Under the pieces are notes generated by a model, which saw only the letters and a list, made by a program, of their open reading frames with translations, had not been told where the DNA came from and did not search any database. From the NCBI RefSeq assembly GCF_030384885.1, contig NZ_CP128613.1: a DNA stretch of 64,000 bases; one strand, given 5' to 3'. The DNA is from Escherichia coli. GTDB taxonomy: Bacteria; Pseudomonadota; Gammaproteobacteria; Enterobacterales; Enterobacteriaceae. Shown here in pieces: positions 22,501 to 36,196 of the stretch. The position numbers were made by a program, and so were the translations under genes. The first letter of the stretch is position 1; the number at the start of each line of letters is the position of its first letter.

Positions 22501-22730
22501 ATGCAAAACCTGAACACCCTGTGGTATTCCCCTGGCATTATCACTTTCGCGATTAACCAACAGCCAGACCAGCAAACACGCCACTACAGGCACAGCAAAA
22601 TCCATCAGGCTTGCCACACCCCATGCGTGCGGCTCAAAGCCGCCCCGCCATGGCATATTAATCCGCTTACCATTTTCGAACAGCTGATTGGTTTAGTCCG
22701 GTGTTTCCCTGCTTGCACTTAAAAATGAGC

Positions 22731-22820
22731 GGATGGGAAACTCTCGAAATGGTTCGTCGATATGCTCACCTTTCAGTCAGGCATTTCACCGCGCACGCGA
22801 GCAAAATCAAAGGCACATGA
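22731..22820 (+). pseudogene. 3' remnant of a second P4-type integrase gene
   Basis: Encodes ..[14 protein letters not shown].. then stop, matching the C-terminus ([14 protein letters not shown]) of the intact integrase at 34943-36106; lies directly beside the left att copy. Confidence 0.6.
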
Positions 22821-22851
22821 GGAGAATGTGGTTGACTTAAAAACGAGGAAA

Positions 22852-22913
22852 CTTATTGATTTAAATGGTGCCGATAATAGGAGTCGAACCTACGACCTTC
22901 GCATTACGAATTA
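22852..22913. repeat. left 62-bp direct repeat (att copy; duplicates 3' part of tRNA-Thr plus 16 bp)
   Basis: Identical to 36105-36166 by direct comparison. Confidence 0.8.
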
Positions 22914-23282
22914 TAAGAATCCGTTTCTAATTCAAAGCATTACCACATCAACACTGCGCTCACACGTCCCACCACATCAAAACATGTAAAGCCTTGCAAG
23001 CCATTGTGAGGCCTTATGTGTCTCAGTTTTGTCCCACCTTGTATTACGACTTGCATAACCAATGAAGATAAACGTGACGACAAACGACGCAGCAGTCTTC
23101 TTTTCTTTCACACTTTCCCCACTCAGCATGCATACCTTCTACTATAACTGTAGTGAATGTCTGTTATGAGCGAGGAGCGGACTATCTTTCTGTGCTAAGC
23201 ACAGAAGTTTAAATTAATAAATAGAGATTAAGATGTTTATTGGTTACATTGATATTTATAATTTGATTGCCTTGAAATTCCT

Positions 23283-23322
23283 AAGCCGAATTCATGACGT
23301 CTTCATCACATGAATTCGGCTT
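23283..23322 (-). terminator. hairpin downstream of the 447-aa cargo gene (possible terminator)
   Basis: Perfect 14-bp stem AAGCCGAATTCATG/CATGAATTCGGCTT, 12-nt loop, about 30 nt past the stop codon; no clean U-run. Confidence 0.35.
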
Positions 23323-23351
23323 ATGCATAATACTAAGTTGGTTTTATTAAG

Positions 23352-24695
23352 TCATTTCTTTGCCGCGCTTTTATTGCACTTCTTACAGCCTTCAATCAAT
23401 TTTTCAGTTATTATATAATAATAAGGAATGTAAATGTTTAACCCGCAAGTTTTAATCGAATCGAAAGCAAGAACTTTCACAATGGATTCTTCTCCATCTT
23501 TCTCCATTAGCAATATATCACTTAAAGGCAAATCATTAGGATTGTAAATCCTCACATCGCCAGGCTGTCTTTCATAGGCTTCGATGTCATCACCTGGTTG
23601 GCCATAGGCTAAATGAGTGGCTTTAATCCAGTTTATTGGTTCAGCATTTTGACACCAGGAGATTATTTTTTCTAATTTTTCAGGTGTGTAAGCTTTTACA
23701 TAATCTCCATGTTTTTCACATCTACCTAGTTCTGAAAAATGGCCCAGGGTGTATTCATAAGAATAATCACCAGCAGTCAATGGTAGTCTAAAGTATTGCT
23801 GAGGCAATGCCTTCTGGACTTTGGTTTTACTCAGCAAATTAAAGGTGATATCATAAAGTTGATATAGACAAACACCCTCTCGATCTGGATATCCATAAGG
23901 CTTGATGTCAGAAAGCATCTCAATATCAGAATTATAAACACTTGCATAATCATCACTTCCAAACATGAAAAAACCTTTTGATAGAATGAATATTGCATTA
24001 GGAAGAACGTTTTTTTCAAAATTCTGCGAGTGAGTTTTTATTTCTTGTACTATGTCCATCCAATCCATATCAGTATCATAGGCGAAGATAATTCCAAAAC
24101 CATTAGTCTGAATTCTCTCCTCTGAATGTATAAATATGTTCTGATTTATACCATGTTTCTTTAGTTTTTTGAATGAGCGGATATTTTCGAAAGCACTTTT
24201 CAGTTCTTTTTTTGTTAGTTTTGACTTAACCTGAATCACACCATAGCAGTACTCCACAGGTAAAACCTCAAAAATTTCCTGTCGCTGCATAAGCGAAAAT
24301 GAATTAAAAGCATCATAAAAAAGAATGTCGATTTCATTACTGAGATGTCCTGAGGTTGACGCTACACGGACACTTGATTTTGAGATGGCATAGCTTTGCG
24401 GTAAGAGTTTATTTTCATTGAAAAAGCATCTTAAGAGTTCCTCTCTGACAGTACCAACATCTCTTGGATGCTTAATATCTTTCGATATTTCAAAATCTTG
24501 AAGCATTTTCCTCTGTAAGTGAATGAACTCCCTTTCAAGACCATAAAATTCTTTATCTTTAGATCTCAGTTTGCTTGCACGAGAAACTTGATCGGATATC
24601 CATTCCTTTGTGCGAGACTCTCTCTCAGCAAAATCATCACGTTGTTTTTTTACAGCACCGGTCAAGCGTTTTCTTGTGTTTTCATTATCGGACAT
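23352..24695 (-). CDS. hypothetical protein, low GC; possible PD-(D/E)xK / Mrr-like nuclease fold
   Basis: 447-aa ORF; motif ..SNEIDILFYD..(about 25 aa)..YGVIQVKSKL reminiscent of a D...(E/Q)xK nuclease core; AT-rich relative to neighbours; no confident family assignment. Confidence 0.55.
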   Translation of the reverse strand: MSDNENTRKRLTGAVKKQRDDFAERESRTKEWISDQVSRASKLRSKDKEFYGLEREFIHLQRKMLQDFEISKDIKHPRDVGTVREELLRCFFNENKLLPQSYAISKSSVRVASTSGHLSNEIDILFYDAFNSFSLMQRQEIFEVLPVEYCYGVIQVKSKLTKKELKSAFENIRSFKKLKKHGINQNIFIHSEERIQTNGFGIIFAYDTDMDWMDIVQEIKTHSQNFEKNVLPNAIFILSKGFFMFGSDDYASVYNSDIEMLSDIKPYGYPDREGVCLYQLYDITFNLLSKTKVQKALPQQYFRLPLTAGDYSYEYTLGHFSELGRCEKHGDYVKAYTPEKLEKIISWCQNAEPINWIKATHLAYGQPGDDIEAYERQPGDVRIYNPNDLPLSDILLMEKDGEESIVKVLAFDSIKTCGLNIYIPYYYIITEKLIEGCKKCNKSAAKK

Positions 24696-25214
24696 AAATT
24701 AACCTTAAGTTGATAAGTTTTGTGGTGAATTTATAAAGCCTGAGGGATAAACATTTATAGTCTATAAGTTACTATTTATTTGAGATAGTAAGCCAATTTT
24801 ATTAGATGAAGAAACGTTCATAACCTCCTCAACTACGTTTCAATCGGCAACATCGGAGAAGTACACTTTGACAATATATAGCATATTGAAGCAGCTGTAA
24901 CTTAGAGCGCGTACACTCAAGATTTCCCGCTGCGGTGATGGCGGACGACTGCGTTTGATAACTCATTTCCCTCACCAACTATCGGACCTGTTCCTGATTG
25001 ATTATCACATTATAATGTGAGCAATGTCCGCTCCTAGCACATAGCAGTTCTAGAGACAATGGCGTAAAGTCATGGAGAATCGGTGGGAGGATATTCAGTT
25101 TCATTCATGCCGAAATACGGTAAAATCTATAACAGATAGAAATCATTCAATATTCGCACTATCAGAAGCTGGCCAGCCAACCGCGCACGATTTTGCATAC
25201 GACATGCTACGGTT

Positions 25215-25814
25215 TCATTTATCTCCGACCGGAAACTTCTTATACAGTGTCGATACACCAACATCATAGATGATCTCCACCTTCTGGCGAGGAACGCCTG
25301 ATGCAATTAATCGCCCGGCCTGCGCCCTTTGTTCTGGTGTAAGTTTGGGACGACGTCCACCAATTCGTCCCTGTGCGCGAGCAACTTCCAGTCCAGCTTT
25401 TGTTCGTTCAACAATCAGTTCTCGTTCCATTTCAGCCAGGGCACCCATCACATGAAAGAAAAAACGCCCCATCGGTGTGCTGGTATCAATAGCATCCGTC
25501 AGGCTGCGAAAATTAACGCCACGTTCGCGCAACTCCTCAACCAGAATGACCAGATGGACAAGCGTGCCGGGACCGGGTTTATTCAGCGCTTCAATCAGGC
25601 GATCGCGCTGGTCAAAGCAGTCATCTCCCACCACATAAGCTGTGATGGACGGGCGGAAAGTGACTTTTCCCAGATCTTCGGTATAGGGCTTGTCGCGGTT
25701 CGGGTATTCATGTGTTTCCACACGGCGACCGGTTCCCGCACTTTCTTCTTCAACCTTAAACGGCACACCTCGAAATGACGCATCCTGAAGCCTGTCTTTC
25801 CACGTCATATACAC
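25215..25814 (-). pseudogene. chimeric ORF: C-terminal half of a Pin/Gin/Hin-family serine DNA invertase fused to a Mu-N-like (DNA circularisation protein) N-terminus
   Basis: C-terminal about 110 aa (VEELRERG..FRSLTD.IDTSTPMGRFFFHVMGALAEMERELIVERT..GGRRPKLT..) matches invertase C-terminus and HTH; catalytic Ser-containing N-terminus missing; first about 85 aa (WKDRLQDASFRGVPF..GRRVETHEYPNRD..EDLG) resembles phage DNA_circ_N proteins. Confidence 0.6.
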
Positions 25815-25869: not shown

Positions 25870-26400
25870 TTAGCGAGTCAGAAACAACGAATCTTTATAC
25901 TTTTGCTGTTGTTCATTTAAATACTTAGCTGTTTCATCGCTGGCAAATGGAAATATTACCGTATTTTTAGGCATGGTAATTTCTTTTTTGTCCAGCGTCA
26001 GAGTAAACATAGGAACATACTGAGCAGAGTAACGCACCGCAGAAACGAGCTCTAGTTTAGACTCTTCAATAACACTTAAATTATCCAGGCTAACTTTCTC
26101 TTCATCTTTTTTCTTTGACGCATTTAAAGTTTTTATTACTTTATTTAATTTCTCCTGAAAATCCTCCTTAAAGTTTTCAGGATTGCCGTCGACAACAAGA
26201 ATCTGTTCACCCTGATTATCTGGAAAAATAATCTTTGCACTTATCAATTTATTTTCTTTATAAACATCACCAAGTTTTATGGCTCCTCCAGATAACTGAA
26301 TAATATGTTCATCTTTAAAGGAGATGTTGCCAGAGATTATGAGAGATGAAAAAATAGCCGCTGCTCCAAGAATTACACTTGCTGTGATATAGCCTTTCAT
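25870..26400 (-). CDS. hypothetical membrane-anchored/secreted protein, low GC
   Basis: 176-aa ORF with N-terminal hydrophobic segment MKGYITASVILGAAAIFSSLIISG; Lys/Glu-rich; AT-rich. Confidence 0.5.
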   Translation of the reverse strand: MKGYITASVILGAAAIFSSLIISGNISFKDEHIIQLSGGAIKLGDVYKENKLISAKIIFPDNQGEQILVVDGNPENFKEDFQEKLNKVIKTLNASKKKDEEKVSLDNLSVIEESKLELVSAVRYSAQYVPMFTLTLDKKEITMPKNTVIFPFASDETAKYLNEQQQKYKDSLFLTR

Positions 26401-26491: not shown

Positions 26492-27623
26492 CTACCAAAA
26501 TCGGGTATAGCCAACATCGTGATTTATATCAATGCCACTGGAGCGTGTTTCCGTAACCCGCATACCTGGTGGCATATTTATAAATGATACCTTGATCTCA
26601 CCATCAACTTTTGGCGCGGTAGCTTTATTAATCATGAAGGGATTCGGGCCTGTGGCATCGGAGGCGTTGTTTGCCTGAGCCGGATCCACCGCCGGATAAG
26701 GAGTGTATCCCCGTGCCGGTATTCCCGTCTTCGATATTGTTGAAGGTGGCGCGATCGGTGTTCTGCACCATGTGCAACGGCACCCGGAACAGACGACAGA
26801 TTTCTTCAAGCTGAAACTTGCGGGTTTCCAGGAACTGGCTGTCCTCGGCGTTCAGCGCCATCGACTTCCAGTCCAGCCCCATCTCAAGGATCATCGGGCG
26901 GTGAGCATTACCAAGCCCGGTGTGACGCTCCTCAAAATCTTTCTTCAGGCGCTCATAAGCCTGATCCGACAGCGTCTGTTCTGTACGCAACACACCCGAC
27001 GTCACCGCGCCATTGCTGAACAGTCTGGCCCCGTGCTCTTCGGTCGCAGCTGCCAGCGATATTGCCTCACGGGCATAGGCGATGGGATTCAGTCCCACCA
27101 GACCGTCCAGCGTCAGCGTGCGCACATGCCAGATATCCTCCTGGCTCAGTACATCCGTGGAGCCATCCGGGAATGTGACCTGATAGACCGGCTCCCAGCT
27201 ACTGTTAAGCTTCGGTACCACACAGCCGGGATCGACGGGCAGCAGTTCAGCCACTTCGCCAAATGCTTTCACTTTGTAGGCGTAAAAGTTTCCCCGCAGG
27301 CACAGACAGGTGACCACCAGCTCCCAGAACTCCTGCGGCGTCATATAGCCATTGGGATGCGTGGAGATCAGCTTATGCAGACGTTCGCCAGTGGCTCTCT
27401 GCTTCAGGCTGCCGTTCAGGTGATACAGGTTGCAGGGCAACATCCCGACCGACTCCGCCAGCACCCTGACACAGGAAAAAACCGCCGTCAGTCGCATGGC
27501 CCGCTGGCTGCTGATCTGCTTTCCGGTATAGGTGTCGTAGGACAACCCGATGGCATCCGCCAGCTCTGCTGGCGTGGTCACCGGTGCGTCACTTTTTCGT
27601 TGAAATAATCCCGAAAAGAACAC
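26492..27623 (-). pseudogene. phage portal protein (HK97-family), frameshifted and 3'-truncated
   Basis: 331-aa ORF with portal-like N-terminus continues in another frame as a 105-aa ORF (26492-26809); normally followed by protease/capsid genes, which are absent. Confidence 0.6.
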
Positions 27624-34942: not shown

Positions 34943-36106
34943 ATGTCACTCTTCCGCAGAAGTGAAATATGGTACGCCAGTTTCACATTGCCGAACGGTA
35001 AAAGATTTAAACAGTCTCTTGGAACAAAGGACAAAAGGCAGGCGACAGAGCTCCATGACAAGCTAAAGGCTGAAGCATGGCGGGTCAGCAAACTTGGTGA
35101 AATACCTGATATGACGTTTGAGGAAGCGTGTGTCAGGTGGCTCGAAGAGAAAGCACATAAGAAATCACTGGACGATGACAAAAGCCGGATCGGATTCTGG
35201 CTTCAACATTTCGCAGGGATGCAACTAAGAGACATCACTGAATCAAAAATTTATTCAGCGATGCAGAAAATGACAAACCGGCGTCATGAGGAAAACTGGA
35301 AACTCAGGGCAGAAGCATGCAGAAAAAAAGGGAAACCTGTTCCAGAATACACGCCAAAACCAGCGTCCGTTGCAACGAAGGCTACGCATCTTTCATTTAT
35401 AAAGGCCCTGCTAAGAGCCGCAGAGCGTGAATGGAAAATGCTGGATAAGGCACCAATTATTAAAGTGCCTCAACCGAAGAATAAACGTATCCGCTGGCTG
35501 GAGCCTCATGAAGCACAAAGGCTGATTGATGAATGTCCGGAGCCATTAAAGTCTGTTGTTGAATTTGCACTGGCAACAGGCTTAAGACGCTCGAACATCA
35601 TCAACCTTGAATGGCAACAAATAGACATGCAGCGCCGGGTGGCATGGATAAACCCGGAAGAGAGTAAATCAAACCGCGCAATTGGCGTTGCGCTGAATGA
35701 TACTGCATGTCGCGTATTGAAAAAACAAATCGGGAATCATCACCGTTGGGTATTTGTATACAAGGAAAGCTGTACCAAACCAGACGGAACGAAAGCGCCA
35801 ACGGTCAGGAAGATGCGGTATGACGCAAACACAGCCTGGAAAGCGGCGCTGAGACGAGCAGGTATTGATGATTTCAGATTTCACGACTTGAGACACACCT
35901 GGGCAAGTTGGCTGGTTCAAGCCGGAGTCCCGTTGTCAGTGTTACAGGAAATGGGAGGCTGGGAGTCTATCGAAATGGTTCGTCGATATGCTCACCTCGC
36001 ACCTAATCACCTTACCGAACATGCACGGCAAATAGACTCGATCCTGAACCCATCGGTCCCAAATTTGTCCCAGTCAAAAAATAAGGAAGGTACTAATGAT
36101 GTGTAA
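34943..36106 (+). CDS. int: tyrosine integrase (P4/DLP12 IntD-like)
   Basis: 387-aa ORF with HDLRHT...YAHL catalytic tail, ending 15 bp before the tRNA 3' end. Confidence 0.9.
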
Positions 36107-36166
36107 CTTATTGATTTAAATGGTGCCGATAATAGGAGTCGAACCTACGACCTTCGCATTACGAAT
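36105..36166. repeat. right 62-bp direct repeat (att copy overlapping tRNA-Thr 3' end)
   Basis: Identical to 22852-22913. Confidence 0.8.
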
Positions 36167-36196
36167 GCGCTGCTCTACCAACTGAGCTATATCGGC
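36121..36196 (-). tRNA. thrW: tRNA-Thr (anticodon CGU)
   Basis: Reverse complement reads GCCGATATAGCTCAGTTGGTAGAGCAGCGCATTCGTAATGCGAAGGTCGTAGGTTCGACTCCTATTATCGGCACCA; cloverleaf-compatible, CCA end. Confidence 0.9.

Follow-up and report, generated by a model that had tools for sequence, protein, structure and literature searches.

The window analyzed here is a stretch of 64,000 nucleotides of Escherichia coli (RefSeq assembly GCF_030384885.1, contig NZ_CP128613.1), and the element considered is a gene of 447 aa located at the integrase-distal end of a prophage, a 13.2-kb Mu-like remnant integrated at thrW. Identical RefSeq copies of this open reading frame (ORF) carry the label "DUF6602 domain-containing protein". 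The protein associates a nuclease domain, related to the effector nuclease NucC, with a C-terminal domain found in no other context. We consider it probable (about 0.6) that the gene is a self-contained and rare one-gene anti-phage nuclease carried as cargo by the prophage, a function deduced from homology and from context. The features of the gene and of its surroundings are collected in Table 1.

Table 1. The nuclease gene, its domains and candidate sites, and the features that flank it (positions in the window; strand "." when not oriented).
Feature	Position	Strand	Remark
447-aa ORF, NucC-like nuclease and family-specific C-terminal domain	23352..24695	-	ATG to TGA, intact
N-terminal extension, aa 1-50	24546..24695	-	basic stretch, then long helix 13-47
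NucC-type restriction-endonuclease-fold domain, aa ~51-292	23820..24545	-	Pfam, PADLOC, phmmer, Foldseek
Catalytic segment E121-I-D123 ... E148 ... Q155-V-K157	24225..24335	-	alignment to NucC
C-terminal domain, aa 293-447, mixed alpha/beta	23355..23819	-	model of the domain alone
C326-x2-H329, first half of putative zinc site, beta-hairpin knuckle	23709..23720	-	invariant in 203/203 relatives
C437-x2-C440, second half of putative zinc site, start of last helix	23376..23387	-	invariant in the family
att repeat, 3' part of thrW, tRNA-Thr(CGT)	22850..22911	.	62-bp direct repeat, 100% identical to 36105-36166
42-nt hairpin, possible terminator or transcript-stabilising stem	23282..23323	-	28 nt past the stop codon
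519-bp AT-rich upstream spacer, from pin fragment to gene	24696..25214	-	weak sigma-70-like match at 24901-24873
Chimeric ORF, circularisation-protein N-terminus and PinE C-terminus	25215..25814	-	context only; marks the deletion that decayed the prophage

An earlier reading of the window, made from the sequence alone (the sequence-only reading), had described the gene as a lone ORF between the left att repeat and a pin-invertase fragment, in a place usual for accessory cargo, and both limits were confirmed. On one side lies the thrW repeat; the intact copy of tRNA-Thr(CGT) is found at 36121-36196, adjoining the integrase (34943-36106). On the other side lies the chimeric ORF, in which residues 1-87 of the DNA-circularisation protein are joined to the last 116 residues of PinE (~84-199). 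Compared with the intact prophage of strain EH10-18-47, the window prophage has undergone a deletion of ~7 kb, by which the invertible tail-fibre genes and the baseplate genes were lost; this deletion created the chimera, so that the ORF is a true pin fragment. Other E. coli strains hold different genes between the att end and pinE, namely a lipase, a LEM-3-like GIY-YIG nuclease, an HNH nuclease or hypothetical proteins. The junction is therefore a variable accessory slot, as had been supposed. The marked AT-richness reported for the gene was also recovered: its GC content is 0.354 (0.30 at third codon positions), against 0.51 in the remaining prophage, 0.50 in the chromosomal flank and 0.50 in the window as a whole. 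The same holds for the hairpin announced downstream of the gene, with a folding energy of -22.5 kcal/mol (z = -3.2) that was equalled by none of 200 shuffled sequences, though a U-tract is lacking and a scan for consensus terminators did not call it. Upstream, an AAGG is located 7-10 nt ahead of the ATG. Promoter-like sites in the upstream spacer are no more numerous than in shuffled sequence, and no strong promoter was seen above that background. No RNA element was found in the island; the sole Rfam match is attributable to chance (E = 0.14).

The N-terminal two-thirds of the protein has the NucC fold. In Pfam, aa 69-178 match DUF6602 (PF20247) with E = 1.7e-22, over model positions 2-104 of 104. 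Among the PADLOC models, CRISPR-associated PD_DExK matched at 2e-27 and two for NucC at 3e-17 and 1.7e-16, and a phmmer search of the PDB sequences retrieved the NucC proteins of Serratia (7zgv, 7e-9) and Vibrio metoecus (4e-5). An AlphaFold2 monomer model, built from 54 homologues, reached a mean predicted local distance difference test (pLDDT) of 88 and a predicted template modelling score (pTM) of 0.83. Submitted to Foldseek, this model matched 14 NucC chains, the best being 6p7p with E = 8.8e-15 and a template modelling (TM) score of 0.78, normalized on NucC, over ~260 columns; the next matches, BbvCI and SgrAI (also, weakly, NgoMIV), were not significant. The motifs H...G...E, LP.RY and P.E are common to NucC and to this protein, which belongs to the PD-(D/E)xK, or restriction-endonuclease-like, superfamily. 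Structure prediction and Foldseek thus bear out the nuclease fold anticipated by the sequence-only reading, which had proposed a "PD-(D/E)xK or Mrr-like" core near residues 120-160. The first of these two names stands, D123 and K157 being aligned with D73 and K106 of NucC; an Mrr-like core was rejected, the matches being NucC and DUF6602. Ahead of the nuclease domain, the helix of the N-terminal extension bears a conserved motif, LRSKD(K/R)EF(H/Y)GLEREF; some distant relatives do not have the extension, which possibly acts in oligomerisation.

The conservation of the active site was counted on 203 full-length relatives, sharing 27-98% identity. Residues I122-D123 are aligned to I72-D73 of NucC, and Q155-V-K157 to E104-A-K106. 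The catalytic residues are intact and strongly conserved: D123, K157 and E85 are invariant in all 203 relatives, and E148 is present in 199 of them. The position corresponding to the Glu of the ExK motif is occupied by Gln155 in 194 relatives. This Gln is itself conserved, and it covaries with Glu121, located two residues ahead of the catalytic Asp. The pairs at positions 121 and 155 are distributed as follows: Glu/Gln in 190 relatives, Gln/Glu in seven, Gln/Gln in four, Glu/Ser in one and Gln/Ser in one, while Glu/Glu never occurs. An acidic residue is hence found at one of the two positions in 198 relatives and at both together in none. In NucC and in other DUF6602 subfamilies the first position is Gln or Ala and the second is Glu. 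From these alignments it looks as if the second acidic ligand had left the ExK strand for the place of residue 121, two residues ahead of the Asp. Restriction enzymes of the NgoMIV/SgrAI branch offer known examples of an acidic ligand relocated in this way. More than 20 positions, distributed over both domains, are invariant in the 203 relatives, down to 27% identity.

The C-terminal domain was examined separately. Residues 293-447, modelled alone from 38 sequences, gave a pLDDT of 88.6 and a pTM of 0.80. As placed in the full-length model, the Cys-His pair and the Cys-Cys pair have an arrangement typical of a treble-clef-like zinc site, and the domain is predicted to bind zinc. Also highly conserved are Y301, N385-P386 and the motifs YFRLPL, WC..AEPINW, RQPGDVRIYNP and IPYYY. 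The domain has no match in Pfam and none in a profile search of the PDB, and a word-indexed homologue search returned only fragments of the same family. With Foldseek, 14 matches were obtained in AFDB50 (E up to 0.002), of which 13 are annotated as DUF6602 proteins (317-463 aa) and one, of 235 aa, is unannotated; some of them, in Halobacteriovorax, Salmonella and Bordetella, share only 15% identity with the query. Among 1.84 billion cluster representatives, a profile of the domain matched 97 proteins. Every complete protein among them is ~400-520 aa long and carries the domain at its C-terminus, and none carries it elsewhere; the others are fragments. The NucC-like N-terminus was present in all ten of the divergent members tested. 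The domain occurs only C-terminal to this nuclease: it is private to the family, and its fold is without known relative. The sequence-only reading was right in announcing a long C-terminal domain of no recognizable type.

NucC is the effector endonuclease of type III cyclic oligonucleotide-based anti-phage signalling systems (CBASS) and of type III CRISPR systems (PDB 6p7p, 6q1h, 6uxf, 7zgv). It is switched on by cyclic tri-AMP (cA3), which is produced by a separate cyclase, and passes from trimer to hexamer on activation. Its cleavage is non-specific and insensitive to methylation, its activity is abolished by D73N, and its nearest structural relatives are the type II restriction enzymes SgrAI and NgoMIV. 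It is defined by the motif IDx30EAK, in which Glu104 binds metal, and by a gate loop with a latch formed by His136 and Tyr141; its cA3 pocket is made of Arg53, of Tyr81, which stacks on adenine, and of Thr226 and Val227. The present protein shares with NucC a restriction-endonuclease-derived fold, a homology detectable in sequence and the catalytic Asp and Lys. It differs by its length (447 aa, where NucC has ~240), with an extra helix at the N-terminus and a C-terminal domain of 155 aa bearing a putative zinc site, and by its motif, which is QVK instead of EAK (I122-D123-x31-Q155-V-K157), with a Glu two residues ahead of the Asp. The ligand pocket was compared position by position. Tyr81 of NucC corresponds to Asn131, a position which is Asp, Glu or Asn in 196 of the 203 relatives and aromatic in none; Arg53 corresponds to Ser101. 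The match to the NucC profile ends at position 197 of 244, and the last ~47 positions, with Thr226 and Val227, do not align. The equivalent of the gate loop (aa 179-199) varies in sequence and in length across the family, with pLDDT below 50 at residues 184-190. No cyclase or Cas10 is annotated around the identical copies of the gene, and none recurs near its relatives (31 loci). Of six features that define NucC as an effector activated by cA3, this protein thus departs in four, and it should not be filed as a NucC; the sequence comparison suggests that control by cA3 has been lost.

The distribution of the family was then considered. The family is rare: it is carried by 13 of 5,426 complete E. 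coli genomes, and by 19 loci among 100,044 species-representative genomes scanned by exact peptide patterns. The E. coli carriers divide into four with the present allele (99.8-100% identity) and nine with an allele 72% identical, located elsewhere in the chromosome; the ORF is intact and full-length in all 13. The hosts are mostly Proteobacteria (Enterobacteria, Pseudomonas, Burkholderia, Rhizobium, Acetobacter, Vibrio, Aeromonas, Acinetobacter and myxobacteria), to which are added one cyanobacterium and Lucifera. The family is also present on five viral contigs of IMG/VR and on plasmids of V. parahaemolyticus and Pseudomonas. The copies with 99.8-100% identity are found intact at three stages of prophage decay: in the complete prophage of EH10-18-47, in the half-deleted prophage of the window, and in a minimal remnant in strain MB06171. 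In this last strain (NZ_CM129888.1, 3726668-3731456) the prophage is reduced to the DUF6602 gene, 100% identical, together with the integrase, one IS3 element and two small genes. The gene thus survives its prophage in at least three independent states of decay. Its integrity over the three stages fits a selective retention; drift over a short time is also compatible with it.

Partner genes were looked for by an all-against-all BLASTP of the ORFs located within 4.5 kb of the gene in 31 loci. No neighbour family is common to more than three of these loci, from which we conclude that the gene works alone, and a conserved partner was rejected. The groups which reach three loci are serine recombinases, in three unrelated loci, and a second group coming from related metagenome bins. 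The loci themselves are mobile elements and defence islands. In E. coli, a relative lies in an integrase/AlpA island with a DUF4238 gene; in Serratia, beside KAP NTPase and HNH genes; in Acinetobacter, as the terminal cargo of a satellite-like int/Bro/DUF927 element adjoining a type I-F CRISPR-Cas system. Others are located at prophage ends, including one in Pseudomonas asiatica. In the latter (locus L011, 11568-12587), a DUF4365-Crr6 gene, with a domain pair of the Divona type, was observed at a distance of 2 kb. Of 14 loci from species-representative genomes, eight have an adjacent large gene that matches a PADLOC defence model, the models including ThsA (1.5e-155), DpdE (7e-192), PifA (1.5e-70), IetS (9e-32), a HamB-like helicase (4e-29), PDC-S49 (1e-24) and PbeA (3e-11). 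The HamB-like neighbour, in Pseudomonas luteola (locus L029, 8831-11857), is a 1,008-aa protein of unusual composition, a caspase-like N-terminus (PADLOC, 3e-14) being fused to the helicase of the Hachiman type. A fixed two-domain architecture, without conserved partner, in a context of mobile elements and defence islands, is thus what characterizes the family. On two further points these results agree with the sequence-only reading: the gene stands alone, as described there, and the candidate defence role proposed there fits the known defence genes that adjoin its relatives. Its description as an "undescribed single-gene system" is to be qualified. The single-gene part is sustained by the lack of a conserved partner. 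PADLOC-DB v2.0.0 offers no model dedicated to the family, and NCBIfam and PHROGs were uninformative; the word "undescribed" may be too strong, since a DUF6602 protein, Damona, has already been found to protect against phages.

Damona is a single-gene cassette of the chromosomal integron of V. cholerae N16961, with experimentally demonstrated anti-phage activity; its homologues are defined there by blastp with a query coverage of 50% or more and E below 1e-5 (Darracq et al., bioRxiv 10.1101/2024.07.02.601686). In N16961 the cassette is one of VCA0308, 0322, 0356, 0366, 0396, 0399, 0409, 0410, 0419, 0441, 0450, 0457 or 0458. As judged from its description, it resembles the present gene in being a single gene with a DUF6602 domain and in cross-matching the Cas PD_DExK family and the small endonuclease of CBASS, i.e. 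NucC. Homologues of Damona are reported in prophages, notably of Acinetobacter, and the small size of integron defence systems is stressed (Darracq et al., bioRxiv 10.1101/2024.07.02.601686); Acinetobacter members of the present family are likewise found on integrative elements. No V. cholerae member was seen among the best 120 of 235 matches to a V. parahaemolyticus plasmid protein used as seed, nor by exact peptide patterns in the 100,044 species-representative genomes, nor in the other homologue list. Damona is the only account of a DUF6602 protein that we found in the literature, and no paper mentioning PF20247 was found; in the few papers found using the term, "NucC-like" refers to type III CRISPR signalling and not to this family.

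Two plasmid proteins were compared with the family, whose nuclease domain they share at 25-31% identity, in neighbourhoods of the defence type. They differ from it by having no C-terminal domain with a putative zinc site, by a canonical E-V-K motif, and by adjacent candidate partners (SEC-C in one case, YejK in the other). The first is a 281-aa DUF6602 nuclease of the A. baumannii plasmid pA2503 (locus L015, 2059-4172). Its gene appears to form an operon with an upstream gene for an Abi-family protein and with a gene, 2 nt downstream, for a 109-aa SEC-C zinc-motif protein; VapBC is found in the neighbourhood. These genes may constitute a three-gene DUF6602 system. The SEC-C protein was considered as a split version of the C-terminal domain and rejected (hhalign probability 1.6%). 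The second is a 327-aa DUF6602 protein of the V. parahaemolyticus plasmid pVPSD2016-3 (locus L016, 2091-4080), located 4 nt after a gene for the nucleoid-associated protein YejK; with SIR2 and TIR genes 1-3 kb downstream, the region looks like a plasmid defence cluster. An analogue by design is Shedu. It is described as a single-protein PD-(D/E)xK defence nuclease in which variable fused sensor domains regulate the catalytic core, with activation via an oligomeric change. Shedu belongs to another nuclease family (DUF4263), and no match to it in sequence or in fold was obtained here.

In the anti-phage reading, the enzyme would cut double-stranded DNA with the help of a metal ion, as do NucC and its type II restriction relatives. 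The fused C-terminal domain, with its putative zinc site, would replace the cA3 of a separate cyclase as the switch. This domain directly follows the segment which in NucC gives Thr226 and Val227 to the cA3 pocket, a position from which control could be exerted in cis. It would keep the nuclease inactive until a cue of infection, a phage protein or an unusual nucleic acid, is met; the cue would then allow assembly of the active oligomer, probably as in NucC, and the degradation of DNA would halt phage replication, either directly or through death of the infected cell. A more specific version, in which the Cys-His-Cys-Cys domain is a new fold that senses a phage component directly and thereby replaces cA3 as the allosteric trigger of a NucC-type assembly, is put forward only tentatively, as we regard it as possible but doubtful.

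Several observations weigh against the anti-phage reading. That the C-terminal domain acts as sensor or regulator is no more than a conjecture, and it could serve DNA binding or oligomerisation instead. The canonical metal-binding Glu of the ExK motif is Gln in 194 of the 203 members; activity therefore depends on the proposed compensation by Glu121 and/or Glu148. Although Arg53 of NucC is replaced by Ser in the present protein, Arg or Lys is found at this position in 186 of the 203 relatives, which on sequence grounds leaves room for the binding of some nucleotide-like ligand in the wider family. Lastly, the association with defence islands comes from a limited number of neighbours, chosen by hand and scored without background control.

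Four other explanations were weighed. According to the first, the protein is a solitary restriction enzyme of a type IV-like kind: some feature of foreign DNA, for instance a modified base or an unusual structure, would be recognised by the C-terminal zinc domain, and this DNA would be cut directly, without abortive infection and without a protein trigger. The kinship of NucC with SgrAI and NgoMIV, and the weak Foldseek matches of the present model to these two enzymes and to BbvCI, go in this direction, as do the absence of a methyltransferase partner, the presence of HNH and GIY-YIG nucleases in the same prophage slot of other strains and the richness of the C-terminal domain in conserved aromatic and basic residues. 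NucC itself is, however, non-specific and indifferent to methylation, and no recognizable reader domain for modified DNA (SRA, YTH/EVE/PUA, winged helix and similar) is fused to the nuclease. We consider this explanation unlikely.

According to the second, the nuclease serves the mobile element that carries it, as an addiction toxin, by degrading host DNA during lytic growth or by excluding competing elements. Its permanent travel on mobile elements, and its position at a prophage end with an upstream spacer and a downstream hairpin of its own, would be expected of such a gene. An addiction toxin is poorly reconciled with the lack of a conserved small antitoxin-like neighbour. The elements concerned are moreover unrelated (Mu-like prophage, integrative islands, satellites, plasmids), some members are found in defence islands of the chromosome, away from any phage genes, and the gene stays intact while the prophage decays. 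A service to the element appears quite improbable.

The third explanation makes the protein an orphan effector, responding to cA3 or to a related signal emitted by a CBASS or a type III CRISPR system located elsewhere in the genome. The NucC fold is indeed kept whole, and the basic residue at the Arg53 position is retained by most relatives. The remainder of the pocket contradicts it: the Tyr81 position is never aromatic, the present protein has Ser for Arg53, the end of the NucC profile is unaligned and the gate loop is not conserved. In addition, a cyclase is linked in none of the 31 loci, and 155 extra residues follow the region that forms the NucC pocket. We hold this explanation for very improbable. 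Finally, a catalytically dead or decaying remnant without current function, which the Gln of the ExK motif and the degraded prophage might evoke, is scarcely credible: the frame is neither broken nor shortened in any of the 13 copies from E. coli, more than 20 positions over both domains are invariant down to distant relatives, and Gln155 is conserved in covariation with Glu121.

Other traces of rearrangement were observed around the gene. Just outside the att copy, 85 nt (22723-22807) are 73% identical to the 3' end of the integrase (35949-36033); this stretch looks like what is left of an older second element that once stood in tandem at thrW. The window also lacks paoABCD and a LysR fragment, which other strains carry in the interval from yagU to this att end. 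Within the prophage, a second AT-rich ORF (25870-26400, minus strand, GC ~0.34) encodes 176 aa, hydrophobic at the N-terminus. The intact prophage has a hypothetical gene with 99% identity to it (locus L001, 22033-22563), flanked by the genes for circularisation and for the tape measure; the ORF may be a separate moron. A 331-aa ORF (26628-27623), possibly a portal-type gene judging from its sequence, has an odd Gly/Ser-rich tail and overlaps the ORF 26492-26809; the tail and the overlap suggest a frameshift or a truncation, i.e. further decay of the prophage.

To our knowledge NucC is known only as a downstream effector, which needs a cyclase and a cyclic trinucleotide signal. If the more specific version is true, in which the C-terminal domain itself senses a phage component, the present family would be the free-living, sensor-fused counterpart of this effector of CBASS and type III CRISPR systems, with a new sensor module, and it would show how signalling effectors and one-protein defence nucleases are interconverted. 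Should the gene prove to protect against phages, it would constitute a compact one-gene system of 1.3 kb, a natural case of an effector converted to the sensing of infection in cis, and a source of a new sensor fold; pending a phenotype, its practical value is modest. For E. coli itself, the junction between the att end and pinE of the thrW Mu-like prophages is a cargo hotspot worth mining.

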